Of a stretch of DNA of 64,000 nucleotides, positions 43,922-64,000 are shown one piece after another (position 1 is the stretch's first letter; each line of letters opens with the position of its first letter). Origin of the DNA: Bacilli bacterium. GTDB taxonomy: Bacteria > Bacillota_I > Bacilli_A > RF39 > UBA660. Where the stretch lies: the NCBI GenBank assembly GCA_028694645.1, contig JAQVKM010000004.1, positions 79,365-143,364 of the forward strand, in the 5' to 3' direction. The notes under the pieces are model-generated. The model saw nothing but the letters and a program-made list of their open reading frames with translations. It ran no database searches and was not told the origin of the DNA. The position numbers and the translations under genes were made by a program.

Positions 43922-43987
43922 TGTGTTTTTTTATGAAAAATTAATAAATTATGATATAATTGATATATATTATGGCAATTTTGCTTA

Positions 43988-44737: not shown

Positions 44738-44745
44738 GTGTAATT

Positions 44746-45516
44746 ATGATAAAAAATTTATATGATTATAGAGAATTACTTAAGAGTAATGTAAAAAAAG
44801 AAATAAGAGGAAAATATAAAGGCTCTTTTTTAGGCGTGTTATGGTCTTTTGTAAATCCTCTTTTATCTGTATTAGTTTATGCAATTGTTTTTCCGATTAT
44901 CTTAAAACAAAGTCAAGATAATTATGTAACTTTCTTAATAATAGGAATATTACCTTGGACATTTTTTACAACTGTAATTAATCAAGGAACGTTTACTATT
45001 GTTGGAAATGCTGGAATCATTAAAAAAGTTTTTTTTCCAAGAGAAATACTGCCTATATCAGTAGTTACTAGTGGTTTAGTTAACTTTTTAATATCTTGTT
45101 TAATTATATTCATTTTCCTTATTTTTGGTGGAATAGGTTTTAGTTCATATATATTGTTATTGCCACTAATAATAATTACGCAATATATATTATCACTAGG
45201 GATTGTATTTATAACTAGTGCTATAAATGTTTATGTAAGAGATGCAGAATATATAATAAATTTCTTTATAATGATGTTGTTTTATGCAACACCAATATTG
45301 TATTCTTCAGAATTATTTGAAGGAACAAAATTTGCATGGATACTAAAATTAAATCCAATGGCATCTATTATTAATTCATATCGTGATATATTATTTTATC
45401 AACAAATGCCAGATTTAAAGACTATGTTAATTGTTCTAATAGGTAGTATTGCTTTATTATTTATTGGAATTCATGTATTTAAAAAATTAGAAAAAGGTTT
45501 TGCAGAAGAGGTGTAA
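44746..45516 (+). CDS. ABC-2 type transporter permease (TagG/Wzm-like)
   Basis: 6 TM helices. Immediately follows the ATPase. Confidence 0.75.
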   Translation: MIKNLYDYRELLKSNVKKEIRGKYKGSFLGVLWSFVNPLLSVLVYAIVFPIILKQSQDNYVTFLIIGILPWTFFTTVINQGTFTIVGNAGIIKKVFFPREILPISVVTSGLVNFLISCLIIFIFLIFGGIGFSSYILLLPLIIITQYILSLGIVFITSAINVYVRDAEYIINFFIMMLFYATPILYSSELFEGTKFAWILKLNPMASIINSYRDILFYQQMPDLKTMLIVLIGSIALLFIGIHVFKKLEKGFAEEV

Positions 45517-45517
45517 A

Positions 45518-47662: not shown

Positions 47663-47677
47663 AAAGGCAAATTTAAT

Positions 47678-49333
47678 ATGAAATTAACAAATAAAAAACA
47701 AATTTTTTATACTACTATTTTGCTGATAACTTATTTAATAATATTCTTTACAAATAATTATAATTATTTAGTTTTATTATTTTCAATAATTGCTATATTT
47801 TCATACTTAATAGGGACAAAAATTGATAGTGAAAAACTTGATAGGTTATTGGAATTTTTTGACAAAAAAAAAGTAACTTTTATCTTACAATTTATTATAT
47901 CATTGGTATTTGTAATTGGAATATATAAATTGGTGTATATTAGTTCATATAATAATTATATTTCAAAATATTATTTAATATTAACTTCGGTTTCTTTAGA
48001 AATTTTATGCATATTTTTATCCAGAAAATTAAAAAAAATAGCAATTGAAAAATTATTTATTTTAATTGCTATACCTATAGGGTTAGCATATTTAGTTTTT
48101 ATTATACCAAATCATGTGCCAGACGAGAATTGCCATTATTATTCAAGTTATAATTTTTCTAACGGAAACTTATTTTCAAATGAATTAAATGGCAATATTC
48201 CTAAGCAAATATTAATAAATGATATTAATAAGATAAATACATATAAAAATTTGGATGATGCTTTAAGATTAGAAGCAAATTATGATGATACAACAGATGT
48301 ATCAGTTTCAGCATATAATATATTTGTTTATTTTCCTGGGACTATTGGTATAGAAATAGGCAAAATACTAAATTTGCCAATATATTTAGGATTTTATTTT
48401 GCTAGAATATTGTGTTTTATAACTTATTTAATAATAGCTTATTATATTATTAAAATTTTGCCGGTAGGTAAAAATATTGCATTTGTATATATGTTGAACC
48501 CTATGATGATGCAACAATCAATTTCCTTATCGGCTGATAATTTGATTAATTTATATTGTTTACTATTTATAGCATATGTTATTAAATTAAAATATCAAAA
48601 AGAATATTTAAGTAAAAAAGAATTACTTGTTTTAGGTATATTGATGTTTTTAATAGCAATATCTAAATATGTTTATATTCCTATTGTCTTATTGTCTATT
48701 ATATTATTTTCAAAATCAAAAAAAAATAAGAAGAATTTAATTATTTTAATTATTGTTGCAATTATTTTATGTTGCCTAACATATGGGTATACATCCTTCT
48801 TTACAAAATCAACCCCAAATCCATATGTCATTGAAAACAATATAAGCACAACAGAACAATTAAAAAATATAATAAAGAGTCCATTAGTACTTTTGAAAAT
48901 GTATTATTATACTTTTATAAACTTAGGAGATTACTTCTTAGAAACTTTTATTGGAGCGAAACTAGGTTGGTTAAATATAGGTGTAAATGGATTAGTAATC
49001 AAGATATATATGATGCTGCTGATATTATCACCTTTTTTATTTAAAGAAGAAAATAGGTTAAATAAAAAAGAAAAATATTTATTTGTTGGTGTATCAATAG
49101 TTATTTTTTTACTAATAATACTTGGGTTATACTTATCTTGGACTGGTGTAGGACAATTAGTTGCTCTTGGTATACAAGGGAGATATTTTATACCTTTTGC
49201 AATATTGTTATTTATAGTATTATGTGATAAAAATAGATATCTAAGTTTTAAGAATGTTCTTAAAATAGAAACTTTTATATTGTTAGTATTACATAGCTCT
49301 GTTATAATGACAATAATTAATTTTTTTATATAA
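47678..49333 (+). CDS. large polytopic membrane protein (possible GT-C-fold glycosyltransferase)
   Basis: 551 aa with >10 TM helices. Adjacent to a GtrB-like gene. Confidence 0.45.
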   Translation: MKLTNKKQIFYTTILLITYLIIFFTNNYNYLVLLFSIIAIFSYLIGTKIDSEKLDRLLEFFDKKKVTFILQFIISLVFVIGIYKLVYISSYNNYISKYYLILTSVSLEILCIFLSRKLKKIAIEKLFILIAIPIGLAYLVFIIPNHVPDENCHYYSSYNFSNGNLFSNELNGNIPKQILINDINKINTYKNLDDALRLEANYDDTTDVSVSAYNIFVYFPGTIGIEIGKILNLPIYLGFYFARILCFITYLIIAYYIIKILPVGKNIAFVYMLNPMMMQQSISLSADNLINLYCLLFIAYVIKLKYQKEYLSKKELLVLGILMFLIAISKYVYIPIVLLSIILFSKSKKNKKNLIILIIVAIILCCLTYGYTSFFTKSTPNPYVIENNISTTEQLKNIIKSPLVLLKMYYYTFINLGDYFLETFIGAKLGWLNIGVNGLVIKIYMMLLILSPFLFKEENRLNKKEKYLFVGVSIVIFLLIILGLYLSWTGVGQLVALGIQGRYFIPFAILLFIVLCDKNRYLSFKNVLKIETFILLVLHSSVIMTIINFFI

Positions 49334-49447
49334 TATATTCATTAAATGATAAATAAAAAATATTAATTTATATTAAATTTAAACTAGAAACATCTAGTTT
49401 TTTTTATAACTTGTATGTTATAATTATAAAAGAAAAGTGGTGTTAAT

Positions 49448-50161
49448 ATGAATAAAATATTACTTATTATACCAGCGTATAATGAAGAAGAAAATATATT
49501 GAAAACTTACAAAACAATTACAAACTATTGTAAAAGAGAAAAAGTAAAATATGATGTCATCGTTATTAATGATGGTTCAACAGATGATACAAAAGAAATA
49601 TGTGAAAATAATAAAATTCCAACAATTAATTTAATTAATAATTTAGGAATTGGAGGAGCTGTTCAAACAGGATATAAGTATGCTTTTCAAAACAATTATG
49701 ATATAGCAATTCAGTTTGATGGAGACGGTCAACATGATGTAAGATATGTTGAGAAAATAATAGCTCCAATTCTAAAAAAAGAATCAGATTTAGTAATTGG
49801 ATCCCGTTTTATTGATAAAAATACTGATGGATTTAAATCAACACTATCAAGAAGAATAGGTATTAAATTAATTTCTTGGTTGATTAATATTGTTTGTAAA
49901 AAGAGAATATTTGATACAACCTCAGGATTTAGAGCTTGTAATAAAAAAATAATAGAGGAATTTGCAAATTCATATCCAGTTGAATATCCTGAACCAATAA
50001 CAACAGTAGAGGTTATAAAAAAAGGATATAACGTGAAAGAAGTTACAGTTAAAATGGCAGAAAGAATTGGTGGAGAATCATCAATTAAAGCATGGAAATC
50101 AGTTTATTATATGATTAATGTTTTTCTTTCAATAATAATAGTAGGGACAAGGAGGTATTAA
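49448..50161 (+). CDS. polyprenol-phosphate glycosyltransferase (GtrB/DPM1-like GT2)
   Basis: LLIIPAYNEEENI...VIVINDGSTDDT...QFDGDGQHD. Confidence 0.75.
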   Translation: MNKILLIIPAYNEEENILKTYKTITNYCKREKVKYDVIVINDGSTDDTKEICENNKIPTINLINNLGIGGAVQTGYKYAFQNNYDIAIQFDGDGQHDVRYVEKIIAPILKKESDLVIGSRFIDKNTDGFKSTLSRRIGIKLISWLINIVCKKRIFDTTSGFRACNKKIIEEFANSYPVEYPEPITTVEVIKKGYNVKEVTVKMAERIGGESSIKAWKSVYYMINVFLSIIIVGTRRY

Positions 50162-50162
50162 T

Positions 50163-50504
50163 ATGTCATTGAAAATAAAATTGGGGATGTTTTTCTTTTC
50201 AATAATTCTTGCATTATTTGTAAGTTACATATTAAAAAAAGAAAAAATGCCAGTTAAATATTCTATTGTTTGGTACCTAGCAGCATTTATTATATTATTG
50301 GCAGCAATTGTTCCAAACTTTTTAATATCAATATCAAGTTTTCTAGGTTTTGAAGCATTATCTAGTATGATAACTGGGCTAATGATAATTATTTTACTTT
50401 CAATTTCAATGGTGTTAACAGTAATTATATCGAATCAAAAAAGAACTATAGTTAAATTAATTCAAGAAGTGTCAATTATAAAGGGAAAAATAAATGAGGA
50501 ATAA
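50163..50504 (+). CDS. small membrane protein (DUF2304-like)
   Basis: 113 aa with 3 TM. Typical partner of GtrB-like genes. Confidence 0.4.
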   Translation: MSLKIKLGMFFFSIILALFVSYILKKEKMPVKYSIVWYLAAFIILLAAIVPNFLISISSFLGFEALSSMITGLMIIILLSISMVLTVIISNQKRTIVKLIQEVSIIKGKINEE

Positions 50505-51711
50505 AAATTTTTTTTGGAATATGATAGGCTCAACATTTAATGCATTTAATTCACTGTTTTTTATGGTTGTTGTAATAAGAATCAATGGCAGTGCTGATGC
50601 TGGTGTTTTTACATATTCATATTCAGTAGCTTGCCTCTTATATTATATTGGTATATATTTTGGAAGAACCTATCAAGTTACAGATACAAAAAAAGATTTC
50701 AGTGATAAAGATTATATATTCAATAGGTATATATCCATTTTTATAATGGTTATAATTTCAATAATATTTGTTGTAATAATGAAATTTGATAATTATAAAT
50801 CTTTAATTTTAATTTTATTAACTATTTATAGGGCAGTTGATGCATTAGCTGAAGTTTATTATGGTATTCTTCATAAAAATGAAAAATTGTATCTAGTTGG
50901 AATTTCTATGACATTAAAATCTTTATGTGGTTTAATATTATTTATTTTGGGTGATATTATATTCAAAAATATAATTTTAGCGTGTATATTTACCATATTA
51001 TTTAATTTAATTATTACAATTTTGAATGACAAAAGAAGGAGCAAAAAATATTTAGAAGAAGGAAATTCAAATTTTAAAAGTATTACAAGCATATATTTAA
51101 AATCATTTTTTGTATTTGCCTTTTCATTCTTGTCAATGTATATAGTGTCTGTTCCAAAATATTCAATGGTTAATTTACCGAATGAAGAACAGGCAATATT
51201 TGGAATAATAATGATGCCGGCAACTTTTGTTAGTTTGTGTGGATATTATATTATTAATCCATATTTAAATAAATTAACAGAATTTTATAAGAATAAAGAT
51301 AAAATAAATTTTGAATTGATTGTAAAAAAAATTTTACTATTTGTATTAGGAATTGGGGTGTTTGCTGAATTATGTGTATTTTCAGTAGCTATACCAATAT
51401 TAAATTTTGTGTTTAAAATAAATTTAAATGACTTCAAATTACAATTAGGAATAATAATTTTAGGTGCTGTTTTCTACACGGCAGGATTGGTATATTCAAA
51501 TGTATTGACAATATTCAGAAAGACCTTTGTTCAATTTATTATTTATGGTATAACTGCACTTGTTGGACTAGCTGTTTCTGTTGTTCTAATTTCTAATTAT
51601 TATCTGTTTGGAGGGACAATGTCATATTTTATTATAATGTCATTGCAATTATTATTGTATACAATAGTAACTAAAAGTATTATGAAAGAGGTTTTTAAAA
51701 ATGATAGATAA
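50494..51711 (+). CDS. Wzx-like oligosaccharide flippase (MOP superfamily)
   Basis: 405 aa with ~12 TM helices. Confidence 0.55.
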
Positions 51712-52285
51712 GATTGACTTAGTATTAAATGAACAAATAAACAATTTGAATGAATTGAAAAATAATAACTATAAAAATAAAATTATGGAAATCAGCAATT
51801 TGATTATTAATGCCATGAAAAATGGTAATAAAATTTTGATAGCTGGTAATGGTGGTTCAGCTGCAGATGCACAACATTTCGCAGCGGAATTAGTTGGAAG
51901 ATTTTGTTTAGAAAGAAAGGGACTACCGGCTATTGCATTAACAACCGATTCTTCTATTCTAACTTGTATGGGTAATGATTATGGATATGATTTTGTCTTT
52001 TCAAGACAAATTGAGGCACTTGGTAAAGCTGGTGATATTTTTATAGGAATATCAACAAGTGGAAATTCTAAAAATATTATTAATGCAACTTTAGAAGCAA
52101 ATAAAAATGGCATTATTTCAATATCTATGACAGGAAAAGATGGTGGAATAATTAAAGAAATAAGTGACTTTAATTTAAATTTTAATTATAAAGAAACAGC
52201 TAGAGTTCAAGAACATCACATAATGTCTATTCATTTAATTTGTGAGGCTGTAGAAAAAAAAATGAAGATATTTCAGGAGGGATAA
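51701..52285 (+). CDS. gmhA: D-sedoheptulose-7-phosphate isomerase
   Basis: SIS domain [19 protein letters not shown]...GISTSGNS. Confidence 0.8.
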
Positions 52286-52286
52286 A

Positions 52287-53516
52287 ATGAAACAAGGAAA
52301 TTATTTATCCAATAATTTTAGAAAAATATATGGTGTATTTCAGAAAAATTTATTCCTAAGAGATTTTAAAAATATTCTTTATTATGTTGATTTAATAATT
52401 CTGTTATTTATTGTTAAACCCAAAAAAATAAAATCACAAAAAAAGAAAATATTGGTTATTTATAATATGGCTTTTGGTGATGGCGTTATTTGGAGATGCA
52501 CATCTGTCCATTTAAACAAATTATACCCAAAGGAAAATTATGAGATAACTTTACTTTGTCAAAAAGGAATAAATAAATTGTATGAGAATGATGATACTTA
52601 CGATCATATTATTCCACTTGATTTTACGAAGGGAACTATTAGTTTGCCAGAGCGAATTAAAAACTTTAAAAAAATAAGAGAAGTATACTATGATTTAGTA
52701 ATTGACCCAATAGGAATAGTTGAGTGTACTACAAATGTTCTAATGACTAGAGCAGCTGTTGGAACAGAAAAAATTGGTTTAATTGATAAAGATGTTATTA
52801 TTCACTGTCCAAGACACATGACAAAAAAAATATATAATAAAATTATTGAAGTCAACGGCAAAGGAGTTTCTTTAATTGATTATTATGCAATATTTTTAAA
52901 GAAATTATCAAATGATAAATTAGATTTAAATGTTGGATATGAAAAAATAAAAACATATCCAACTAAAATAAAATTGCCAGAAAAATATTTTGTTGTATTT
53001 CCAAGTGCAAGTATGAAATTAAAAAGATGGGATATCTCCAAATACGTTGAATTATCTGGAAAAATACACGATAAAACAAAAATGCCAATTGTTTTAGTTG
53101 GTACAGTAGCTGATAAAGAAGCGATAGATCAATTCAAAAAGAATTTAAAAGTTCCCTTTGTTGATTTAGTTCAAAAAACAAATTTAAATGATTATATAAA
53201 TATAATTAAAAAGGCAGAGCTTGTTATAACTAATGACACTAGTGCTTATCATATCGCAGTAATTGAAGAAACCCCGGTTGCTATAATAACTGGTGGCTAT
53301 ACATATGATAGATATGTTGAATACAAATTTGAAAGAATGAATGAATTTAAAAAACCATGTATCATTGTAAATGAAATGAGCTGCTTCAATTGTGGAAATA
53401 GATGTCCTAATTTAAAAAAAGAGAACAGGAATTGGCCATGTTTAGAAAATATAACAGTTGATTTTGCTTGGAAAAAAATAGAAAAAATGATAAACGATGG
53501 AAAAATAGGAGAGTAA
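52287..53516 (+). CDS. glycosyltransferase family 9 (heptosyltransferase-like)
   Basis: C-terminal ITNDTSAYHIAV...ITGG matches the GT9 donor-binding motif. Confidence 0.6.
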   Translation: MKQGNYLSNNFRKIYGVFQKNLFLRDFKNILYYVDLIILLFIVKPKKIKSQKKKILVIYNMAFGDGVIWRCTSVHLNKLYPKENYEITLLCQKGINKLYENDDTYDHIIPLDFTKGTISLPERIKNFKKIREVYYDLVIDPIGIVECTTNVLMTRAAVGTEKIGLIDKDVIIHCPRHMTKKIYNKIIEVNGKGVSLIDYYAIFLKKLSNDKLDLNVGYEKIKTYPTKIKLPEKYFVVFPSASMKLKRWDISKYVELSGKIHDKTKMPIVLVGTVADKEAIDQFKKNLKVPFVDLVQKTNLNDYINIIKKAELVITNDTSAYHIAVIEETPVAIITGGYTYDRYVEYKFERMNEFKKPCIIVNEMSCFNCGNRCPNLKKENRNWPCLENITVDFAWKKIEKMINDGKIGE

Positions 53517-53517
53517 T

Positions 53518-54966
53518 ATGAATGTTGAAAAACTACGCGCAATAAATGATAAAAATATATTAGTTTTCGGTGATTATATGGTAGATAAGTATATTCTTGG
53601 AGATGTTAGCAGAATATCACCAGAAGCACCAGTTCCTGTTATACAAATGAGAGAAGAACAATGTAAAATTGGTGGAGCTGGCAATGTGATAAATAATATT
53701 ATTTCATTAGGTGCAAACGTAAAAGCTCTTGGTTGTGTTGGGGAAGATGAAGCCGGAAACTTCATAATTGATAATTTCAATAAAAATGATATTGATATTT
53801 TGCATTTTCGAAAAATGTCAAATATCAAGACTATATGTAAAACAAGAATTGTATCAAAAAAACAACAATTTTTAAGAATAGATGAGGAAAACATAAAGGA
53901 ATTACCATATGAATACTATGATTATTTAAATCAAAATATAGAAGATATTTTTAGTGAAATAAATCTTTTAATAATATCAGATTATGCTAAAGGAGCAGTT
54001 GTTGAAAAAACATCACAATTATTAATAAGAAAAGCCAAAGAAAAAAATATTCCTATAATTGTGGATCCTAAAGGCAATGACTACAGTAAATATTTTGGAG
54101 CAACAATTGTAACTCCGAATGTTAAAGAATTAAGTGACGTAGTTAAAAAAGAACTTTCAACAGAAGAGTCAATTATTATTGAAAGTGGTAAGTTATGTGA
54201 AAATTTTGGTTTTGACTATGTTATGTTGACGCGATCAGAAAAAGGTATAAGTTCAATTAATAAGGATTACGAGAAAAAAGATTTTCCTGCTGTTGCAAAG
54301 GAAATTATTGATGTTTCTGGAGCTGGAGATACAGTTGTTGCCACCATGGCATTAACAATGACATTGGGATTTTCAATTGAAGAAATGTGTAGAATTGCAA
54401 ATATAGCTGCATCAATCGTTGTATCAAAATTTGGAACTAGCACAGTGAATCTAAATGAATTAGTAAGCAATATATCAATTACAAGAGAGTTTAAATTATT
54501 AACTTCTGAAACAGCTGATTATATAATTGAATACTTAAGAGAAAATGGAAAAAAAATAGTTTTTACAAATGGGTGTTTTGATTTATTACATGCAGGTCAT
54601 TTATCCTCATTTAAAAAAGCCAAAGAATTTGGCGATGTTTTGATTGTTGCAGTCAATAGCGATTTATCTATAAAGAGAATAAAAGGAGAATTACGACCAA
54701 TAATAAAGGAAAAAGATCGTATTGAAATGCTTTGTGCATTAGAATGTATCGATTATGTGATTTTAATGGAAGATGATAATCCAATTGAATTATTAAAAAA
54801 ATTAAAACCAGATGTATCCGTTAAAGGAAAAGATTGGGAGAATAAAAATGTAGTTGAAAAACCAGTAATAGAAGAATATGGTGGAAAAATAGAATTTATA
54901 GATTTAGAATCAGGAATATCTACAACTACAATTATTGAAAGAATATTAAGAGCATATAATGAATAA
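53518..54966 (+). CDS. hldE: bifunctional D-beta-D-heptose 7-phosphate kinase / heptose 1-phosphate adenylyltransferase
   Basis: N-terminal pfkB-like kinase domain. C-terminal cytidylyltransferase-like FTNGCFDLLHAGH. 482 aa. Confidence 0.85.
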   Translation: MNVEKLRAINDKNILVFGDYMVDKYILGDVSRISPEAPVPVIQMREEQCKIGGAGNVINNIISLGANVKALGCVGEDEAGNFIIDNFNKNDIDILHFRKMSNIKTICKTRIVSKKQQFLRIDEENIKELPYEYYDYLNQNIEDIFSEINLLIISDYAKGAVVEKTSQLLIRKAKEKNIPIIVDPKGNDYSKYFGATIVTPNVKELSDVVKKELSTEESIIIESGKLCENFGFDYVMLTRSEKGISSINKDYEKKDFPAVAKEIIDVSGAGDTVVATMALTMTLGFSIEEMCRIANIAASIVVSKFGTSTVNLNELVSNISITREFKLLTSETADYIIEYLRENGKKIVFTNGCFDLLHAGHLSSFKKAKEFGDVLIVAVNSDLSIKRIKGELRPIIKEKDRIEMLCALECIDYVILMEDDNPIELLKKLKPDVSVKGKDWENKNVVEKPVIEEYGGKIEFIDLESGISTTTIIERILRAYNE

Positions 54967-55486
54967 AGTTATATTTTTAGATAGAGATGGAACTATTAAT
55001 TTTGATTCTGGTTATTTACATGAAATAGAAAAATTTAAGTTTTTACCGGGGGTTATTGATGGATTAAAATCTCTTCAAAATATGGGATTTAAGCTTATTA
55101 TTGTTACAAACCAATCTGGAATTGAAAGAGGATTTTTTAATGAATTTGACTATAAAATCTTAACTGATTATATGCTAAATGAATTAGAAAAAGAAGGAAT
55201 TAAAATAGAAAAGGTATATTATTGTCCTCATTTTTTTAGTAATTGTAATTGTCGAAAACCAAAATTAGAACTTTTTTATAAGGCAAAGGATGAATATGAT
55301 ATAGATTTTTCAAAGTCATATGCCATAGGAGATAAGAAAAGGGACTTGTCGATTTGCGAAAAAGAAAAAACAAAAGGAATACTTATTTCCTCTGAATTTG
55401 AGTCAATACAACTACAAGGGAATATAGCATTAGTCAAAAATTTTAAAGAAGCTGTTTTGCTTATACAAAAAAATGAAACAAATTAA
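54959..55486 (+). CDS. gmhB: D-glycero-D-manno-heptose 1,7-bisphosphate phosphatase
   Basis: HAD motif FLDRDGTIN. 175 aa. Confidence 0.8.
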   Translation: MNKVIFLDRDGTINFDSGYLHEIEKFKFLPGVIDGLKSLQNMGFKLIIVTNQSGIERGFFNEFDYKILTDYMLNELEKEGIKIEKVYYCPHFFSNCNCRKPKLELFYKAKDEYDIDFSKSYAIGDKKRDLSICEKEKTKGILISSEFESIQLQGNIALVKNFKEAVLLIQKNETN

Positions 55487-55504
55487 ATAATAATAAAAGT
55501 TAAG

Positions 55505-55545
55505 ACCACATGGTAATATAAATATTTACAAATGTGGTTTTTATT
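55505..55545 (+). terminator. terminator hairpin after gmhB
   Basis: CCACATGGTAA..TTACAAATGTGG stem followed by a T-run. Confidence 0.5.
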
Positions 55546-55579
55546 TATTTTTTATTGTATAATATGCATAGGTGGTAAT

Positions 55580-57496
55580 GTGAAAAAGAAATATAAATTT
55601 TTATTATTTGCTATTTTATTAATAGTGTTGAAACAAATTTTAATTAATAATTTGCCTATTTATGCAATTGGCAATAGTTCATGTGATGATCAATTAATGA
55701 TTATGATGGAGGCAAATTTATTAAAATTAAACTGGTTAGGAGATTTTAATAGTTTAACTTTAGTTAAAGGAATTTTTTTTCCATTTTTTCTTGCCGTTAA
55801 TGCCTTTTTGGGTATATCATATATAAATGGAATTACACTTTTTTACTCAATTGCATGTCTGATTTTTGTATATAGTATTAGAAAAATATTTCATAAAGAA
55901 TGGCCTATTTATTTAATATTTTTATTATTGCTATTTAATCCAATTATGTTTTCATTGGAAACAGCACAAAGGGTTTATAGGAATTCATTAACTCCGGGTC
56001 AAGTTTTATTAATTATGGCATCTATATTTGCTATGTTTATTAATAGAAAAAATAACAAGAATATATTATGGTGGTCTATATTTGGAGGAATATCATTAGC
56101 GACATTTTGGAATACTAGAGAAGATGCTATATGGATATTACCTTTTATTTTAGTTTTTACTATGATAATGATAGTAGAACATATTGTTACAAATAAAAAT
56201 AAATTTCAATTAAAAAAAATAATAATATTTATATTACCATTAATAATTCTTCAAACATTTAATATTGGTATTTCAACTATTAATTATATGAAATATGGTG
56301 TTTTTACGAGAGTTGATTTGAGTAATACTAATTTTAGTGAAGCTATTGAGGCGATATATTCTGTTCCAACTTATGATAATATAGAATATACTTCTGTTAC
56401 TAAAGAAAAACTTGAAAGACTATATGATATTAGTCCATCACTTAATAGCATTTCAGAAGAATTAAATGCTATTTCCATTTCAATGGATCAAAATGGTAGA
56501 ATTCCGAGTGATGAGCAAATAGAAGATGGATGGTTTTGGTGGGCACTAAGATTTGCAGCTGAAGCAAAAGGCTATTATGAGAATGCTATTAAAGCGGAGA
56601 ATTTTTTTGGAGATATAGTTAATGAAATAGAAACTGCACAAAAAAATGGTTTGATTGAAAAGCAGTCTACTATGCCATCAGCATTGATGAGCCCTTGGCG
56701 AGAAGGTTATTTAAAAAAATTATTTAATACTAGTCTTGAAATAATAAAATATACAAACAATTATACTGATGTTAATGCAATTGCTATGGAAAGTGTTGGT
56801 AGTTATAATTCAATTAAATTTTTCGAAATAGCTACCAATGATACAGCAATATATCCAGCTCAACTTTCAAATATTGAAGGATGGTATAGATATAATTATG
56901 AAGATTATTATATAATAGCAAATGTTAATAATGAAGCTTTAAAAAGAATAAATTGTAAAAAACAAGAAAATTGTGAAATAAATATAGATTTTAATATTAG
57001 CCAAAGTGATGAAACAATTAGTTTGAAAATATTTAATATAAATGATAGTTTGATTAAACAAATAAATATAGTTGACGATATAACATCTGAAATTGGAGAT
57101 AATTATTCTTATAATATTAATTTATCAAAAATTACTGATCCAAACATGCTTCAAAAAGAATTTTTGAATGTTTATGTTGGACGACTAAATATAATAGGAC
57201 TTCTTTATAAAAAAACAGGAATAATTTGTGGGATAATAGGACTTGTTTCATATATTGGAGTTACCATTATTGCTTTATTTAAAAATAAAAAAATTATAGA
57301 TAAATGGTTAATTTTGAGTAGTATTTTGGCTACATATTTGGTATTATGTATAGGAGTTTCATATAATCATATTTCATCTTGCCATTCCATTAGCTCTATG
57401 TATTTATCTGCTGCCTATTCATTAATAATAATTTTTTGGTCAATGTCTATATTTGTTTTGATTGATTATATAAAAGAAAAAAAATTAAATAATTAA
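55580..57496 (+). CDS. large polytopic membrane protein (possible GT-C-type glycosyltransferase)
   Basis: AGGTGG RBS then GTG. N-terminal ~10 TM helices, a soluble middle and a C-terminal TM pair. Confidence 0.45.
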   Translation: MKKKYKFLLFAILLIVLKQILINNLPIYAIGNSSCDDQLMIMMEANLLKLNWLGDFNSLTLVKGIFFPFFLAVNAFLGISYINGITLFYSIACLIFVYSIRKIFHKEWPIYLIFLLLLFNPIMFSLETAQRVYRNSLTPGQVLLIMASIFAMFINRKNNKNILWWSIFGGISLATFWNTREDAIWILPFILVFTMIMIVEHIVTNKNKFQLKKIIIFILPLIILQTFNIGISTINYMKYGVFTRVDLSNTNFSEAIEAIYSVPTYDNIEYTSVTKEKLERLYDISPSLNSISEELNAISISMDQNGRIPSDEQIEDGWFWWALRFAAEAKGYYENAIKAENFFGDIVNEIETAQKNGLIEKQSTMPSALMSPWREGYLKKLFNTSLEIIKYTNNYTDVNAIAMESVGSYNSIKFFEIATNDTAIYPAQLSNIEGWYRYNYEDYYIIANVNNEALKRINCKKQENCEINIDFNISQSDETISLKIFNINDSLIKQINIVDDITSEIGDNYSYNINLSKITDPNMLQKEFLNVYVGRLNIIGLLYKKTGIICGIIGLVSYIGVTIIALFKNKKIIDKWLILSSILATYLVLCIGVSYNHISSCHSISSMYLSAAYSLIIIFWSMSIFVLIDYIKEKKLNN

Positions 57497-57556
57497 TTAT
57501 TTACAAATGTGGTTTTTATTTTATATTTAATATATAATAATATTAGGTGATAAAAT

Positions 57557-58360
57557 ATGAAAAAATTTAGTATAATATTGCTAATAATAATTTTATTATT
57601 TATTACCACAACAAATATTAATGCAAAAAGTTTTATAACATTGCCAAATCAAATAAATTTGGTAGGTAAGAAAATATATCAAGAACAAAACAGATTTATT
57701 AAAATGAAAGAAAAAAACAATTTTTATTTTGAAAACAAAAATTTTTATAATTCAATTACGGGATTGCTAACTACAAATGGAAAAAAAATAATAGATATTT
57801 CCTCACATCAAAAAGATATAAATTGGGATATAACAAGAAGATTTGTTGATGGAGTTATATTAAGAATTGGATATGGCAGTAAAAATATTGATAAAAATTT
57901 TGAACAAAATATAATTGAAATAAAAAAATATAATATTCCTTATGGAATATATTTATATAGTTATGCTGAAAATAGATGGGATACTTTAGAAGAAAATAAA
58001 TTTATATTAAAAATTATAAATGATTATAATTTAAATCCTAAACTAGGAATATACTATGATATAGAAGAGTTTTATATGAACAATCAAAAAATTAAAATAA
58101 GTTCAGAAACTTATGATAAAATAATAGATGAATTTATAAGTTTCTTTCATAATAAAAGATACTTTAATATAGGAATATATACTAATAATAGATTTTATAA
58201 ATATAATATAAATAGAGAATCAAAAAAATATGTAAGATGGATAGCTCAGTACAATTGTTATTTTAATTGGCAAAATAATTTTAAAATTTGGCAGTTTACA
58301 GATAAAGGAGCCATTCCTGGAATAAGTACTAATGTAGATATAAATGTAATGTTTAATTAA
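57557..58360 (+). CDS. GH25-family muramidase (lysozyme), secreted
   Basis: Signal peptide. DISSHQKDINW and GVILRIGYGS match GH25 motifs. Confidence 0.7.
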   Translation: MKKFSIILLIIILLFITTTNINAKSFITLPNQINLVGKKIYQEQNRFIKMKEKNNFYFENKNFYNSITGLLTTNGKKIIDISSHQKDINWDITRRFVDGVILRIGYGSKNIDKNFEQNIIEIKKYNIPYGIYLYSYAENRWDTLEENKFILKIINDYNLNPKLGIYYDIEEFYMNNQKIKISSETYDKIIDEFISFFHNKRYFNIGIYTNNRFYKYNINRESKKYVRWIAQYNCYFNWQNNFKIWQFTDKGAIPGISTNVDINVMFN

Positions 58361-58416
58361 AATGCTTTATTTAAAGTATTTTTTTTAGTATAATGTAATT
58401 ATCAAGGAGTGGTTTT

Positions 58417-59343
58417 ATGGATAAAATAGCAGTACTAATACCATGCTATAATGAATCAAAAACGATAGAAAAAGTAGTAAAAGATTATAAAGAAGTATTG
58501 CCTGAGGCAACAATATATGTATATGATAATAATTCAAAAGATAAAACTGATGAAATAGCTTTATCTGCAGGAGCTGTTGTTCGTTATGAATATAAACAAG
58601 GTAAAGGAAATGTTATTCGAAGTATGTTTCGAAAAATAGATGCTGAGTGTTATATTATGATTGATGGAGATGATACATATCCAGCAGAAAATGCTAGAGA
58701 AATGGTAGATTTAATTTTAAGTGGTAAAGCTGATATGGTAATAGGCGATAGATTATCATCAACATATTTTACTGAAAATAAAAGACCATTTCATAACTTT
58801 GGAAATAAAATTGTAAGACTTTTAATTAATAAATTATTTAATAATAACGTTAAAGATATTATGACAGGATATAGAGCTTTTAGCTACGAATTTGTTAAGA
58901 GTTTTCCTATATTATCAAAAGGATTTGAAATTGAAACAGAAATGACTATTCATGCAGTTGATAAAAATTTTAAATTAGTTGAAATACCAGTTACGTATAG
59001 AGATCGCCCAGTTGGAAGCGTATCAAAATTAAACACTTATAAAGATGGTATGAAAGTTTTAAAAACAATTTTTAATTTGTTTAAAGAATATAAACCAGCT
59101 TCCTTTTTTAATATTGTTTCATTGATAATATTATTATTTTCATTGGCTCTTGGAATGCCCGTTATTATAGAATATTTAAAAACAGGATTAGTTCCAAGAT
59201 TTCCGTCATTAATTGTTTCTTGTATTTTGCTAGTTTTAACATTTATTTTATTTGCAACAGGAACAATATTGCAAGTTATTGTAAAAAAACATAAACAATT
59301 ATATGAATTATTTTTAAACAATTTATATAATAAAGAGAAATAA
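58417..59343 (+). CDS. polyprenol-phosphate glycosyltransferase (GtrB/CsbB-like GT2) with C-terminal TM helices
   Basis: IAVLIPCYNESKTI...YVYDNNSKDKT. Two C-terminal TM segments. Confidence 0.75.
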   Translation: MDKIAVLIPCYNESKTIEKVVKDYKEVLPEATIYVYDNNSKDKTDEIALSAGAVVRYEYKQGKGNVIRSMFRKIDAECYIMIDGDDTYPAENAREMVDLILSGKADMVIGDRLSSTYFTENKRPFHNFGNKIVRLLINKLFNNNVKDIMTGYRAFSYEFVKSFPILSKGFEIETEMTIHAVDKNFKLVEIPVTYRDRPVGSVSKLNTYKDGMKVLKTIFNLFKEYKPASFFNIVSLIILLFSLALGMPVIIEYLKTGLVPRFPSLIVSCILLVLTFILFATGTILQVIVKKHKQLYELFLNNLYNKEK

Positions 59344-59344
59344 A

Positions 59345-59752
59345 ATGAAAAATAAAATCAGAAATTTAAAAAATCAAAAATTATTAAAACAAATATTCAA
59401 ATTTGGAATAGTTGGTGGATTAGCTTTTATAATAGACTATGCTTTATTATTTATATTAACAAAAATAATAAAAATGTATTATTTAGATGCATCAATTATT
59501 TCATTTGTTGTTTCATTAATATTCAATTATATAGCTAGTATTAAGTTTGTTTTTGATGTTAAGAAAAAACAAACAATAAAAGAAATATTTATTTTTGTTT
59601 TATTAAGTGTAATTGGACTTGGAATAAATCAAGTAATATTATATATAACTGTTGATTTAATATTAATAGATGTTATGATTGGTAAAATATTTGCAACAGC
59701 AATAGTAATGATATGGAATTTTATAACAAGAAAAATATTTATTGAAAAATAG
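59345..59752 (+). CDS. GtrA-family membrane protein
   Basis: 135 aa with 4 TM. KFGIVGGLAFIIDYALLFIL. Confidence 0.7.
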   Translation: MKNKIRNLKNQKLLKQIFKFGIVGGLAFIIDYALLFILTKIIKMYYLDASIISFVVSLIFNYIASIKFVFDVKKKQTIKEIFIFVLLSVIGLGINQVILYITVDLILIDVMIGKIFATAIVMIWNFITRKIFIEK

Positions 59753-59897
59753 TTATCGCTTGATAACTTTTTGTTTGATTAAAAATTATCATTAAAAGTG
59801 TAAAAAAAAGTAAACAAATACATTGTAATGTTTGATAATTAAAACAAAAAGTGTTATACTAAAAATGTATAAGTATTAATGTAAGGTGGTGAAGGTA

Positions 59898-60089
59898 ATG
59901 AAAGAAGCTGCTGGAGAAGCAAATATGACTGTAGTAACTATCATCTTAATAGGGATTATAGTTGCAGTTGTAACACCAATAATCAACAGTATGATGACAA
60001 GCACAGAAAAAAAAGCTTGTTGTATGAACAATGGTGGAACTTGGGAAAATGGTGGATGTGTTGGAGCAAGTTCTGAATGTGAAGAATAA
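59898..60089 (+). CDS. small membrane-anchored Cys-rich peptide (pilin-like?)
   Basis: AGGTGG RBS. 63 aa. Short charged N-term, one TM helix, then C-terminal KKACCMNNGGTWENGGCVGASSECEE. Confidence 0.45.
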   Translation: MKEAAGEANMTVVTIILIGIIVAVVTPIINSMMTSTEKKACCMNNGGTWENGGCVGASSECEE

Positions 60090-60106: not shown

Positions 60107-60559
60107 ATGAGACAAGCTATTGGAAGTGTACCAATGTACAATATAATAATGGTTTTTATAGTAATAACTTTCGGTTTCTTGTCTGCAACCTTAAGTTATA
60201 TGAAAGCTTTTAAAGTGAATGGTAGAATTGCAAAAGCATTAGAAAATTATGAAGGCTATAATATTCTTTCAAATAACGAAATAACTGAAACTTTATCTAA
60301 TATAGGATATAAAATAGGAGATGCAAGTAGTTATTCTTGTCCAACAAGAGATAACAAAGCAGCCGTTCAAGCTATAACAGGTAAAAATCATGTTTATTGT
60401 TTGTATGAATTAGATTATTATCAAAATGGAACAACAAAAACAAGATATTTTAATTATGGTATTGTAAGCTATATTTTTATAGATCTTCCTATAATTGGTG
60501 AAACAATAAAAGTTCCAGTTTATTCAGAAACAGAAAAAATATTTAGATTTTCTGCTTAA
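60107..60559 (+). CDS. N-terminally anchored secreted protein, TadE/pseudopilin-like (paralog 1)
   Basis: 150 aa with N-terminal TM helix. Conserved CP.R.N...YC.Y pair shared with the next ORF. Confidence 0.5.
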   Translation: MRQAIGSVPMYNIIMVFIVITFGFLSATLSYMKAFKVNGRIAKALENYEGYNILSNNEITETLSNIGYKIGDASSYSCPTRDNKAAVQAITGKNHVYCLYELDYYQNGTTKTRYFNYGIVSYIFIDLPIIGETIKVPVYSETEKIFRFSA

Positions 60560-60574
60560 TTAGGAGTTGATTAA

Positions 60575-61033
60575 ATGAAAGAATCTATAGGAAATGCCTT
60601 TATAATGGGAATAGTTATAACATTTATAATTATTTTCATGATTTTTTTTGCAAGTTCATTAGCATACACTAAGGCTTTTAAAGCAAAAAACAAAATAGTT
60701 GAAATAATCGAAAAATATGATGATATTTTAAGTCAAAGTGCATCAGAAAATTCTGTTTTAATTAATGCAGTTGAAGCAGAAATAAATGAGACTTTGTCTG
60801 GTATGGGATATCGTATTAGCCCTACTTCTAATAATTGTCCATCTAGAAATAATGTTTCAGCTGTTAGAAAACAAGAAACAGCAAATTATGAATATTGTGT
60901 ATACAAATATACAACAACTAAAGGAAATTATTATGGAGTAACAGCTTATATGTATTTTGAAATTCCTATAATAGGGGTTGGACTTAGATTTCCAGTTTAC
61001 GGAGAAACTAAGATAAGTGGAATTTTAGGTTAG
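60575..61033 (+). CDS. N-terminally anchored secreted protein, TadE/pseudopilin-like (paralog 2)
   Basis: 152 aa. Same architecture and Cys pair as the previous ORF. Confidence 0.5.
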   Translation: MKESIGNAFIMGIVITFIIIFMIFFASSLAYTKAFKAKNKIVEIIEKYDDILSQSASENSVLINAVEAEINETLSGMGYRISPTSNNCPSRNNVSAVRKQETANYEYCVYKYTTTKGNYYGVTAYMYFEIPIIGVGLRFPVYGETKISGILG

Positions 61034-61043
61034 GAGGAATTAG

Positions 61044-62048
61044 ATGAACGTAATTATTGCTAACAAATATCAATCGATGCTAGAAACATTAGAAATTGAT
61101 GTTATAAAAAAACTAGAAGGTGAATTTGAAGTTGAAGATATAATAAATCAATTTCAAAATTTTTTCTTTCAAAGAATGATTTTGGATATCACAGCTATTA
61201 AAGATTATCGTGATATTAAAACCTTACAAAAATTATCTATTTCATTAGATATGGATAAAGTTATATTATTATTAGACGATTCATCTGAGGGAACTTCTAA
61301 TGATTATTTATCAAAATTGATTTCAATGGGAATATATAATTTTACTAAGAACATAGAAGGAATAATGTATTTATATAATAATCCTAATTCATATCGTGAT
61401 GTTGCACATATACAACAATTAGATATGACATCAGGAGAAGAAGTTATTATAGAAAAATATGAACAAGCAGTAGTTGGAACTAGAATTATTGGTATTAAAA
61501 ATGTTACTAAACAGTCTGGTGCAACAACATTATCTTATATGATAAAAAATCAGTTAAAACAAAATTATTCAGTAGTGGCTATAGAAGTAAATAAAAGTGA
61601 CTTTAGATATTTTGGTGATAAATCACTTATATCTACAACTAATTTTGAAATAGGAAATCAAATTTCAAAATATAGTGATAATGATGTTATTATTGTAGAT
61701 ATAAATGATTCAAAACAAGCAGAAGATTTATGTCATGATGTTATTTATTTAGTAGAACCATCTATCATTAAATTAAATAAATTGATGCTAGTTAATAGTG
61801 GAGCATTTAAAGATTTAGCTAAAAGAGATGCAAAAGTAGTTTTAAATCAAAGCTTATTAAATTCAAAAGATGTTTTAGATTTTGAATATGAGTCTGGAGC
61901 TAAAGTATTTTATAATATGCCACCACTTGATGAAAGAGAAAAAAGTATATTCGCTTTAAATTCGTTTTTAGTTAGATTAGGATTTAATAAGCAAAAAGAA
62001 GAACAACAAGAAAAAAAGAAATCGCTTTTAAGCTTATTTAGCAAATAA
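61044..62048 (+). CDS. TadZ/CpaE-like protein: receiver-like N-domain plus degenerate ParA/MinD-like ATPase domain
   Basis: IGIKNVTKQSGATTLS is a degenerate deviant Walker A. The N-terminal ~120 aa have a REC-like pattern. Confidence 0.4.
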   Translation: MNVIIANKYQSMLETLEIDVIKKLEGEFEVEDIINQFQNFFFQRMILDITAIKDYRDIKTLQKLSISLDMDKVILLLDDSSEGTSNDYLSKLISMGIYNFTKNIEGIMYLYNNPNSYRDVAHIQQLDMTSGEEVIIEKYEQAVVGTRIIGIKNVTKQSGATTLSYMIKNQLKQNYSVVAIEVNKSDFRYFGDKSLISTTNFEIGNQISKYSDNDVIIVDINDSKQAEDLCHDVIYLVEPSIIKLNKLMLVNSGAFKDLAKRDAKVVLNQSLLNSKDVLDFEYESGAKVFYNMPPLDEREKSIFALNSFLVRLGFNKQKEEQQEKKKSLLSLFSK

Positions 62049-62124: not shown

Positions 62125-62487
62125 ATGTTAGATATTTTAACTTGTACAGTTGGTGGAGTAGGAATGAGCAATGAAGCTTATGTAATAATTCCAAAAATTA
62201 CTGTTATGGTAGTTAATGTTATTAAAATCGTTATACCAATAATGTTAATAATATTTGGTATGCTTGATTTAGCTAAAGCTGTAATGACTAACGATGAAAA
62301 AGAAATGAAGGGTGCTCAAACAAAATTAATGAAAAGAGCAATCTATGCCGTTTTAGTATTCTTAGTTATCGCAATTGTACAATTATTGTTTGGCGCATTA
62401 GCTGGTTCTGCAGATAGTGATAGTGTTGATGGAAGTACTATTCAAGGATGTATCAGTTGTTTTGTTTCACAAACAAAAGATTGCTAA
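62125..62487 (+). CDS. membrane protein with TM-(D.K..K.A...LMKR)-TM module and Cys-rich tail
   Basis: AGGAGG RBS. The module is shared with the next two ORFs. Confidence 0.45.
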   Translation: MLDILTCTVGGVGMSNEAYVIIPKITVMVVNVIKIVIPIMLIIFGMLDLAKAVMTNDEKEMKGAQTKLMKRAIYAVLVFLVIAIVQLLFGALAGSADSDSVDGSTIQGCISCFVSQTKDC

Positions 62488-62584
62488 TATTAATATAGAA
62501 ATTATATGGAATTTATTCCATATTTTTTTTTATTATGATATAATGTATTTGTAAAAAAATATTTTTTAGCGTGGAGTGATATTT

Positions 62585-63637
62585 ATGAAAAAAATTATGT
62601 ATACATTTATATTAGTACTATTAGGATTTACATCTTTTAGTCATGTGAAAGCAGCGGCAATGTGTTCAACAAGGAATATAGATAGTTCAAAATGGTCTTA
62701 TGTTGAGACGATAACAAATAACAATCAACAATATTCAACAGTTGAAACATCAACTGAAAAAAGGGTTTGTTGTACAACAGGTTCTGGACAGACTTTACAA
62801 TATTATTGTGACAAATATTCTATTGTAGAAAATTATACTGCTCCTGAAGTTGAGGAAGAAATTACTTCCAATGATTTAGGAACATATGATATGCAATGTA
62901 ATACTATTAAGGGATTAGATTCAGAATGGAAATTTGATAAATGTGTTTGGTATTATCCTGCTTCTGCACCTTCTAATAAAGAAGTAATGGGTGTAGAAAA
63001 AGTATACTGTACAGTAGTTGGCTCAGGAGCAACTCAAAGAAGTCAATGTGATTATTTTACTTGGGAAGGGGATTTTGATTTTACTCAAAAACCAAGTAAT
63101 GCTATAGATACACCATTTGGAGCATGTGGAAATGTTGGTAATGATTGGACTTTTAATTATGCTATAACAAGTTCAACAAACATAACAACACAAACAGATA
63201 ATAGTAAAGTATGTTGTAATCAAACAGGAACTGGTGCAGGGACAACATACTTGTGTGATGTTTATGTAGATACTGAATATTATAATGATAAAAATGGTGA
63301 TGAAGATGAAGATATAGATACTTCTGTATGTTCAATTTTAGGTGGAGAAAACAGTGATACAATATTAATTATTAGAGAAATATATAATTATTTTACATGG
63401 ATCATCCCAGTATTAATAGTTGTTTTAAGTATTTTAGATTTTGTTAAAGTAATAGGCTCTGGGGATGACAAAGACTTAAAAGCTGCTGGAAACAATTTAA
63501 TAAAAAGAATTATAGTTGGGGTTGCTTTTTTCCTTGTTCCTTTATTAGTTAAATTATTTATTAATATTAGTGGAATTACTGAAAATATTACTGATGGAGA
63601 TAGTATTGTTGCAATAATAAGTTGCGTTTTAAAATAG
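62585..63637 (+). CDS. secreted Cys-rich repeat protein with C-terminal TM-(DDKDLKAAGNNLIKR)-TM module
   Basis: Signal peptide. Two copies of a VCC..G.G...Y.CD.Y repeat. C-terminal module as in the flanking ORFs. Confidence 0.5.
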   Translation: MKKIMYTFILVLLGFTSFSHVKAAAMCSTRNIDSSKWSYVETITNNNQQYSTVETSTEKRVCCTTGSGQTLQYYCDKYSIVENYTAPEVEEEITSNDLGTYDMQCNTIKGLDSEWKFDKCVWYYPASAPSNKEVMGVEKVYCTVVGSGATQRSQCDYFTWEGDFDFTQKPSNAIDTPFGACGNVGNDWTFNYAITSSTNITTQTDNSKVCCNQTGTGAGTTYLCDVYVDTEYYNDKNGDEDEDIDTSVCSILGGENSDTILIIREIYNYFTWIIPVLIVVLSILDFVKVIGSGDDKDLKAAGNNLIKRIIVGVAFFLVPLLVKLFINISGITENITDGDSIVAIISCVLK

Positions 63638-63648: not shown

Positions 63649-64000
63649 ATGAACGATAAAGTAGGATTAGATATTATTAGATCAATATCTTCTGTTTTAG
63701 ATAAAGCAGTGTATTGGATAATAAGTATTGCATATGAAATAATAACTGAATTAGCACAAATAGATATATTTAAAGATACAACTGTTAGTGATTTTTCAAC
63801 AAGAATATATACTTTAATTGGTTTATTTATGATATTTAAAATATCGTTTGTATTAATCAATTATGTAATTAATCCGGGAAATATAACGGATAAAGAAAAA
63901 GGTGGAGCTAATTTAATCAAAAGAATTGTAATTACTTTTGTACTTATTATAATGGCCCCACAACTTTTTTCATTAATGACAAGAGCACAAAATGCTATAT
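63649..64000 (+). CDS. membrane protein carrying the same TM-(DKEKGGANLIKR)-TM module (3' end beyond window)
   Basis: ORF is open to the window end. GGAG RBS. Confidence 0.45.
   Translation, partial: MNDKVGLDIIRSISSVLDKAVYWIISIAYEIITELAQIDIFKDTTVSDFSTRIYTLIGLFMIFKISFVLINYVINPGNITDKEKGGANLIKRIVITFVLIIMAPQLFSLMTRAQNAI

Follow-up and report, generated by a model that had tools for sequence, protein, structure and literature searches.

A candidate TadZ/CpaE-type organiser, highly diverged, encoded between pilin-like genes and type IV secretion genes in gut Bacilli

Introduction

Tad systems are marked by two separate platform genes and by TadZ, a hub protein that acts early and brings in the remaining parts (PMC6668835). 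The Caulobacter protein CpaE consists of a receiver (REC) domain, a ParA/MinD domain and a C-terminal amphipathic helix for inner-membrane association, and six of its dimers surround the CpaF motor as a membrane-associated ring (PMC13170226). TadZ has an atypical Walker A, binds ATP and shows low ATPase activity (PMC6668835); its Walker-A-like consensus is K/RGGXGXS/T (bioRxiv 10.64898/2026.07.08.737194). The TadZ of E. rectale, as it is summarised in PMC10482377 with reference to Xu et al. 2012, has lost both lysines and still binds ATP, with a lysine in the adjacent helix compensating for the loss. Here we describe a gene at positions 61044-62048 of a 64,000-nucleotide stretch of DNA from an uncultured gut bacterium of the Bacilli (contig JAQVKM010000004.1). 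We call the whole stretch the window; all features below lie on its forward (+) strand unless stated otherwise. The product of the gene is probably a highly diverged cytoplasmic organiser of the TadZ/CpaE type.

An earlier note, made from the letters of the window alone, had described the product as a ParA/MinD-fold protein with a receiver-like N-terminal domain, and had grouped it with the pseudo-ATPase organisers TadZ and CpaE of pilus machines. This proposal stands wherever it could be checked: the fold, the lost lysine and the pilin-like genes directly upstream all agree with it. The word pseudo-ATPase is plausible but unproven, because the E. rectale TadZ binds ATP without either lysine.

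Parts of Tad systems also occur with other machines in Bacillota. TadZ-like receiver domains and Tad genes lie in or near other secretion systems, for example in TsfV of the type VII secretion system (T7SS) T7SSf and in the Tad loci at T7SSg/h (PMC11217815). TsfV differs from our protein: it is an AAA+ ATPase with a TadZ-like receiver domain and no MinD fold, and the neighbour in our case is a type IV secretion system (T4SS), not a T7SS. A further point of reference is the chromosomal, relaxase-less T4SS of the MPF_FATA type with PF18895 pilins found in Patescibacteria (PMC12102498). The text of that paper contains no ParA/MinD or Tad terms.

A degenerate Walker A is in itself not new, because the E. 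rectale TadZ already lacks both lysines. New are the extent to which the P-loop has degenerated, the conserved non-canonical receiver pocket, the total absence of annotation from so large a gut-specific family, and the embedding of the gene between pilin-like genes and a relaxase-less MPF_FATA-type T4SS.

A two-domain fold shared with TadZ

The AlphaFold2 model of the protein was computed from a 52-sequence alignment (32-54% identity to the query). It has a mean predicted local distance difference test (pLDDT) score of 92.3 and shows two domains and a disordered linker (residues 128-142). The N-terminal domain (residues 1-127; 61044-61424) is a receiver-like (beta-alpha)5 fold. Its strands span residues 2-6, 20-25, 44-48 and 73-76, followed by a short fifth strand at about 97-100, and there are five helices. 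The alternating pattern that the earlier note had read in the first ~120 residues is therefore present in the model. The linker (61425-61469) scores below 50 at residues 128-138 and 140-142. Alignment gaps show that its length differs across the family. It is much longer in the family members of 400-520 amino acids, where the profile matches fall in two stretches.

The C-terminal domain (residues 143-315; 61470-61988) has the P-loop fold of the MinD/ParA class (SIMIBI), with a Walker B aspartate and switch regions. With this domain Foldseek retrieved ATPase-type proteins: HypB, ParA, MinD, BcsQ and dethiobiotin synthetase, at E values from 3e-5 to 1e-2. Among PDB chains it is the E. rectale TadZ that aligns with the most residues of the target model (193). 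A genuine TadZ from a Ralstonia tad locus finds 3ea0 as its best PDB sequence match, and this ties the structural neighbours of our protein to the TadZ branch. The fold and the architecture proposed in the earlier note are confirmed in this way by an independent method. An atypical N-terminal receiver domain followed by an ATPase fold of the ParA/MinD(FleN) class is the architecture of TadZ and CpaE. MinD, ParA, FleN/FlhG and BcsQ differ from our protein, which carries an extra receiver domain, lacks the motif KGGxGK[ST], has no MinE, ParB or FlhF-type partner gene and is missed by every ParA/MinD model of Pfam.

The gene is genuine, and purifying selection on it is strong. Its open reading frame (ORF) encodes 334 amino acids plus a stop and runs from an ATG to a TAA. 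A Shine-Dalgarno sequence, GGAGGA, can be read at 61033-61038, 5 nt 5' of the ATG; it overlaps the stop codon of the preceding gene by that codon's final base, and 10 nt separate this codon from the ATG. The protein is identical to the NCBI entry "MAG: hypothetical protein PHN42_03965 [Bacilli bacterium]" (MAG, metagenome-assembled genome). Compared with a 90%-identical orthologue in the related locus L087, the ratio of nonsynonymous to synonymous substitution rates (dN/dS) is 0.084, the lowest of the five genes in the block.

The family is large. From 8000 candidates scored, 6207 homologues were obtained at E<=0.001. A profile search of 1.84 billion cluster representatives gave 554 clusters (50% identity) at the same threshold, 160 of these at E<=1e-30. 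Members occur in 287 species genomes. All come from uncultured gut Bacilli/'Tenericutes', whose genomes are small; one named host is placed in Mycoplasmatota. Family members are annotated everywhere as hypothetical, and none of the 120 relatives listed has a Pfam domain. The same AT-rich, Bacilli-type cluster also appears in MAGs labelled 'Muribaculaceae' or 'Ignavibacteriales' (L007, L009, L034, L037, L040, L041, L047, L052, L058, L075 and L078). These labels are probably binning or naming errors and not a sign of transfer to Bacteroidota.

The nucleotide site

The P-loop of the protein, IGIKNVTKQSGATTLS (residues 149-164; 61488-61535), has the letters given in the earlier note and contains no GK[ST]. 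Its core is T155-K-Q-S-G-A-T161, and the family-wide form is T-x-H-A-G-[A/S]-T-[T/S]. We set the register by counting back from the modelled helix 160-171. In this register G159-A160-T161-T162 would correspond to the G-K-T-T positions of MinD and ParA, and T155 to the position of the signature lysine. Conservation was counted in 84 full-length representatives of the 50%-identity clusters. At position 160, the equivalent of the Walker lysine, alanine occurs 44 times, serine 30 times, threonine 6 times and lysine never, as the earlier note had stated for the single sequence. Position 155 is a threonine in 77 of the 84. The most constant residues of the loop are G159 (79), T161 (76) and A158 (74), and a histidine stands at 157 in 54. 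Both P-loop glycines are exchanged, one for a variable residue and the other for the histidine. Such a loop is far from the deviant Walker A of MinD and ParA, KGGxGK[ST]. It is found family-wide, which excludes a sequencing error, and a canonical Walker A emerging after sequence correction is ruled out as well.

The rest of the site is preserved. In the switch-I-like segment after beta2, E181-V-N183-K-S-D186 (61584-61601), E181 never varies among the representatives, position 183 holds either N or D, and D186 is almost constant. The Walker-B-like site D219-I-N221 (61698-61706) closes the strand 215-219; D219 is present in 78/78 and N221 in 76/78 aligned representatives. E238 and N268 are likewise invariant or almost so. 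Matched by their position in the secondary structure, T161, E181/N183 and D219 may be the counterparts of T17, D38/D40 and D120 of MinD. Although the lysine is lost, T161, E181 and D219, at the Mg/phosphate-ligand positions, vary little or not at all. Whether the protein has kept nucleotide binding is, in our estimate, an evenly balanced question.

This conservation is the basis of a rival explanation, namely that the protein is an active nucleotide-dependent switch. It would dimerise with ATP and Mg as MinD does and cycle on and off the membrane, with a basic residue elsewhere, such as K/R152 or K/R243, standing in for the lost lysines. A switch of this kind would fit either of the two machines encoded nearby. 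We consider it a close contender whose chance falls a little short of even. T161, E181, D186, D219, N221, E238 and N268 are all invariant or nearly so, and K or R is found at position 152 in 68 and at position 243 in 70 representatives. The E. rectale TadZ is a precedent, since according to the accounts in PMC10482377 and PMC6668835 it binds ATP with low ATPase activity after losing both lysines. Against such a switch, the P-loop glycines have given way to a variable residue and a histidine (54/84), and the signature position holds a threonine. We know of no P-loop NTPase that works with a loop of this kind. Moreover, the acidic residues might just as well be conserved for structural reasons or for an interface.

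The receiver pocket and the C-terminal tail

The earlier note had found no obvious phospho-acceptor context in the N-terminal domain. This is only partly so. An aspartate, D48 (codon 61185-61187), stands at the end of beta3, where it closes the strand 44-48, and is present in 82/82 aligned representatives. We take its position to be that of the phospho-acceptor Asp57 of CheY. The other residues of a phosphorylation site are indeed missing. In place of the acidic pair after beta1 there is N7-K8, with N in 80/81. Beta4 is followed by L77 and P/D78 and not by Thr or Ser, and at beta5 we find N99-F-T101 and no conserved Lys. Canonical phosphorylation of the domain is unlikely because the acidic pair, the beta4 Thr/Ser and the beta5 Lys are all missing.

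The pocket is nevertheless not a relic. N7, G26, D48, T50 and N99 are invariant or nearly so, and judged by this pattern N7, D48, T50 and N99 appear to form a conserved site that has not decayed. The pocket sets the protein apart from TadZ and CpaE, in which the receiver domain is 'stripped down'.

At its C-terminus, behind a variable charged linker, the protein carries a basic-hydrophobic tail, KKKSLLSLFSK (residues 324-334; 62013-62045). A tail of the type K/R...(I/L)F-G-(L/I)F-(K/R) occurs in about 34 of the 84 representatives, and the model has a helix at 316-332 (pLDDT 76-83). By resemblance, it is possible that the tail is a membrane-targeting helix like those of MinD and CpaE. Its hydrophobic moment does not exceed that of shuffled sequences, and this is equally so for the E. 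coli MinD tail, so that the test is uninformative.

Pilin-like genes and the ATPase/platform module

To describe the surroundings of the gene we counted neighbours in 80 species genomes and several metagenome contigs. Each count is the number of loci with a homologue over the number of loci with a long enough flank (eligible loci). In most relatives the gene is preceded by divergent counterparts of the genes of a tad locus: a CpaB-like gene, a TadA-type ATPase gene, two platform-like genes, and one small and two larger pilin-like genes. With the REC-MinD protein added, this set equals what a monoderm Tad system encodes. The lost Walker lysines are a further likeness to TadZ and CpaE, and the basic-hydrophobic tail, by its resemblance to the amphipathic helix of CpaE, may be another.

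Three pilin-like genes lie directly upstream in the window. Gene f (59898-60089) encodes a 63-amino-acid protein that begins MKEAAG/EANMTVVTIILIG and has a Cys-rich C-terminus. Family alignment places its start probably at the ATG at 59898 and not at the GTG at 59886 given in the mechanical ORF list. Gene e (60107-60559) encodes 150 amino acids, with the leader MRQAIG and then a hydrophobic helix. Gene g (60575-61033; 152 amino acids) is its paralogue, with 38% identity. Gene e is present in 83/83 and gene g in 84/85 eligible loci; gene f was found by tblastn in 72/78, and additionally by jackhmmer in L090 and L091. The three proteins have the leader M-[KR]-[EQ]-x-x-G in common. They have neither the Glu5 of classical type IV pilins nor the G/xxxxEY of Flp. 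The model of e, a long N-terminal helix plus a sheet, is that of a type IV pilus (T4P)-type pilin, and its pilin matches are weak. We also considered e and g as VirB8-like proteins and rejected this; the model is helix-plus-sheet, and no NTF2 or VirB8 matches were found. No prepilin peptidase was found among the window ORFs scanned, which were not all of the ORFs.

In about 88% of the relatives the CpaB, ATPase and platform genes stand together as one module just 5' of the pilin-like genes. The CpaB-like gene (TIGR03177, 6e-7; PF16976, 2e-5) is present in 55/62 eligible loci and the TadA/VirB11-type ATPase in 57/65; the latter scores 94 bits on PF00437 and reaches an hhalign probability of 99.1% to the Ralstonia TadA. 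The platform-like genes B (58/66) and C (60/68) encode consecutive polytopic membrane proteins of TadB-like topology without a sequence match. Neither they nor the pilins match the Tad models of Pfam and NCBIfam. In 14 related loci a YfhO-family (GT-C glycosyltransferase) gene lies between the platform-like genes and the pilin gene (compare L001 6300-8723). The closest plasmid relatives of the ATPase, annotated 'CpaF/VirB11 family', occur in the conjugation operons of L088 (Paraclostridium, NZ_CP079739.1) and L089 (B. subtilis pLS20-type, NZ_CP071277.1). There the ATPase gene is followed by one or two genes for hypothetical proteins of ~240-270 amino acids, a row of ORFs of 47-85 amino acids, and VirD4. 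These operons are a plasmid parallel to the pairing of a pilus module with a T4SS.

The type IV secretion cluster

The genes that follow belong to a T4SS. The first (62125-62487) encodes a VirB2-like T4SS pilin of 120 amino acids. It matches PF18895 weakly (E 0.0095), jackhmmer groups it with the pilin domain of the next gene product, and it is found in 69/71 eligible loci. The next gene (62576-63637) encodes a secreted Cys-rich protein of 353 amino acids with a C-terminal T4SS_pilin domain (PF18895, E 6.3e-7, 29.8 bits with a cut-off of 26.6). A VirB6/TrbL-like membrane protein begins at 63649 and is interrupted by the window edge at 64000. By tblastn its start is 47% identical to residues 1-117 of a 686-amino-acid protein of L001, which belongs to the NCBIfam MMCAP2_0566 conjugal transfer family (1.6e-8).

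Past the window end, the 90% relative L087 (11083-21002) continues with the VirB6-like gene, a 107-aa gene, a split VirB4 and cell-wall hydrolases. VirB4 is divided into a TraC-like ORF and an ORF of 594 amino acids, and the L001 orthologue scores 347 bits on the NCBIfam model Mbov_0397 from mycoplasma integrative and conjugative elements (ICEs). The VirB6-like gene is present in 59/61 and VirB4 in 56/58 eligible loci. Taken as a whole, the type IV cluster (62125 onward; L001 11075-20999) includes a gene for a 106-amino-acid protein, and its hydrolases are of the NlpC/P60 and glucosaminidase types. Our gene, genes f, e and g and the downstream T4SS genes are co-oriented and tightly spaced, and the linkage of our gene to the T4SS genes is as close as that to the pilin-like genes. 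The cluster as a whole is set among housekeeping genes, and among the Pfam-annotated genes within ~10 kb of L001, L087 and L090 there is no relaxase, integrase or VirD4.

The T4SS of the window resembles that of Patescibacteria in its tandem PF18895 pilins, its VirB6 and VirB4, its housekeeping setting and its occurrence in many uncultured species with reduced genomes. It differs in its Bacilli/Mycoplasmatota-like host and in its split VirB4, which is nearest to the mycoplasma ICE type.

One locus has a different downstream neighbour. In L036 (1000-7272) a 72%-identical homologue, truncated where its contig begins, precedes a 1525-amino-acid FtsK/SpoIIIE protein (PF01580, 128.6 bits, two stretches) and small proteins. 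The large protein is EssC-like in size and layout, a likeness to the T7SS-linked loci, and no T4SS genes lie within 10 kb.

Evidence against TadZ, and the competing readings

Several results weigh against an assignment to TadZ. The first is the P-loop. Even the relaxed TadZ consensus does not describe it: the signature position lacks K/R, the GG is gone, and the G-x-[ST] half is the sole part that the family has kept. By comparison, the P-loop of the Ralstonia TadZ is R-P-G-V-G-T-T.

The second is sequence similarity. None of the sequence methods that we used connected the family with TadZ/CpaE, or with a ParA/MinD family of any kind. The family hidden Markov model (HMM), run against all PDB sequences, did not match 3fkq, 3ea0, 4lda, 4myr or 4dn6 at E<=10, and phmmer and the family profile found nothing relevant there. 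No similarity is detectable to the E. rectale TadZ (3fkq), to C. crescentus CpaE or to the N-domain of S. meliloti CpaE2 (4myr). The earlier note had suggested a comparison with CpaE/TadZ profiles. No profile places the protein in that group, and hhalign of the family profile against the TadZ of a Ralstonia megaplasmid (L092 5412-6728) gave a probability of 0.6%; with a single sequence as the template, this is a weak test. The protein itself has no match in Pfam, NCBIfam, PHROGs or PADLOC. A Pfam scan of 52 diverse family members gave scattered chance-level matches only (AAA_31 once, E 0.01), and these 52 had no match in NCBIfam. When a profile built from the remotest members was run against the database, its matches all belonged to the family and no annotated relative was reached.

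The third is gene order. The gene lies 3' of the pilin genes and not before the ATPase gene, as would be expected for TadZ and CpaE, and T4SS genes follow it. It is also retained where the ATPase module is not adjacent. The window is such a case, with no ATPase, platform or CpaB homologue in the 61 kb upstream of the gene, and neither is the module within 8-10 kb upstream in L087, L007/L008, L026, L077, L090 and L091. In the window its place is filled by a glycan cluster of ~20 kb (41002-59752). L090 (3181-9197) and L091 (2917-8784) represent a distant clade with ~35% identity to the window protein. There the module is replaced by signal-peptide proteins of 195-1168 amino acids with Cys-rich modules, Thr-rich linkers and a C-terminal membrane anchor. 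L090 and L091 also have an extra protein with a T4SS_pilin-like C-terminus. Loci without an adjacent module still have T4SS genes after our gene. Hence the invariant partners of the gene are the pilin-like genes and the T4SS, and not the Tad motor.

These invariant neighbours give rise to the main rival explanation, in which the protein serves the T4SS, or both machines. As a dedicated T4SS component it would be an adaptor of ParA/MinD fold, similar in function to VirC1 of Agrobacterium, that docks or positions VirB4/VirB6 or recruits substrates, and the f, e and g proteins would be surface or pilus subunits of the T4SS. No neighbourhood other than the order f-e(-g)-target-VirB2-like pilins-VirB6-VirB4 is invariant, and this order survives in loci without the module, including the clade of the window and the distant clade at ~35% identity. 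The associated ATPase, where there is one, scores slightly higher as VirB11 (107 bits) than as a member of the TadA family (94 bits), and its best plasmid relatives are the CpaF/VirB11 proteins of the pLS20-type conjugation operons. Those regions contain no homologue of our protein, however, and neither do the Paraclostridium ones. VirC1, encoded with the relaxosome and VirD4, is a ParA of one domain; its deviant Walker A is canonical, and a receiver domain is lacking. Our protein, with its receiver domain, its degenerate P-loop and no relaxase or VirD4 among the annotated genes nearby, is a poor fit to this type. To our knowledge no T4SS has a component that combines a REC domain with a MinD fold, whereas the two-domain architecture fits TadZ specifically. 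Gene e models as a T4P-type pilin and not as a VirB8/NTF2 or VirB5-like protein, and the L036 homologue stands before an FtsK/SpoIIIE gene with no T4SS genes around it. Taking both sides together, we regard a dedicated T4SS role as unlikely, though it has to be kept in view.

We rejected partition, phage and defence-system readings because the context is against them and no matches were obtained. A plasmid or ICE partition ParA, or a response regulator controlled by phosphorylation, could appeal to the ParA fold, to the invariant Asp at the receiver acceptor position and to flanking genes akin to mycoplasma ICE conjugation genes, but is highly improbable given a protein without a Walker lysine or a DNA-binding output domain, a receiver without the acidic pair, the beta4 Thr/Ser and the beta5 Lys, and surroundings without a ParB-like gene. 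Nor do the three loci searched have an annotated relaxase, integrase or VirD4; the 5' neighbours are housekeeping and glycan-synthesis genes in the window and include RNase J and DnaB/DnaI-type genes in L090.

A proposed scaffold for a pilin-like filament

The monoderm Tad gene set, the CpaE ring and the hub role of TadZ lead us to propose that the TadZ/CpaE-type organiser is a dimeric scaffold at the periphery of the membrane. Its MinD-like domain would homodimerise, possibly in a nucleotide-dependent way and with little or no hydrolysis. Nucleotide dependence is possible because the ligand positions T161, E181, N/D183 and D219 are invariant. The C-terminal tail would keep the dimer at the membrane. 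The receiver-like pocket, which is presumably not phosphorylatable, may serve as a protein-protein interface to a neighbour or a landmark. The scaffold would then recruit the assembly ATPase and platform of a pilin-like filament, and possibly the VirB4 machine, and position them at a defined site of the membrane. The protein would act as a scaffold or a switch, and not as a motor.

An extension of the proposal makes the protein a shared hub. It would couple a Tad-like filament and a relaxase-less T4SS of mycoplasma-ICE type into one composite contact apparatus of host-dependent gut Bacilli (RF39-like) with reduced genomes. We rate this extension as speculative and on balance improbable. If true, it would parallel the pair of T4P and T4SS that Patescibacteria need for epibiotic growth. 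It would also account for the constant linkage of the gene to the pilin-like and T4SS genes, even where the motor module has another location.

For a family of 554 clusters in 287 species genomes, the proposal provides an annotation as organiser. It also offers a way into the conserved locus where pilin-like genes and a relaxase-less T4SS meet, a locus on which attachment, DNA uptake or cell-cell interaction of the uncultured hosts likely depends. The P-loop extends the limit to which a MinD/ParA site is seen to degenerate, and the family lends itself to asking whether scaffolding of this kind needs a nucleotide or not. Finally, the locus adds to an emerging pattern in which TadZ-like modules are common to different secretion machines of monoderms.

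Other genes and signals in the window

A scan for promoters and terminators gave counts at chance level, and promoter-like sites at 59832-59860 and 62052-80 are hints only. A protein of 307 amino acids at 38793-39716, 20 kb from the cluster, has an N-terminal prepilin methylation motif (PF07963, E 1e-6) and represents a second, classical type IV pilin-like gene in the same genome.

Immediately 5' of the pilin-like genes (55532-59752) lie genes for a polytopic membrane protein of 654 amino acids without a Pfam match, a GH25 muramidase, a GtrB-like glycosyltransferase (GT) of family GT2, and GtrA. Together with the YfhO-family genes of the related loci, the GT genes near the pilins hint at glycosylation of the filament or of the surrounding envelope. 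Further upstream, at 51701-55486, this monoderm MAG encodes an ADP-heptose-type pathway, with a GmhA-like SIS protein, a GT9 heptosyltransferase, an HldE-like PfkB-cytidylyltransferase fusion and a GmhB-like HAD phosphatase. These genes adjoin those for an O-antigen-ligase-like protein, several GT2 proteins, an ABC-2 exporter and a DUF2142 protein. Elsewhere in the window there are an insertion sequence (IS)-type transposase with an rve integrase core and HTH_21 (6706-7467, minus strand) and a gene resembling Abi_2 abortive-infection genes (29469-30404, plus strand).

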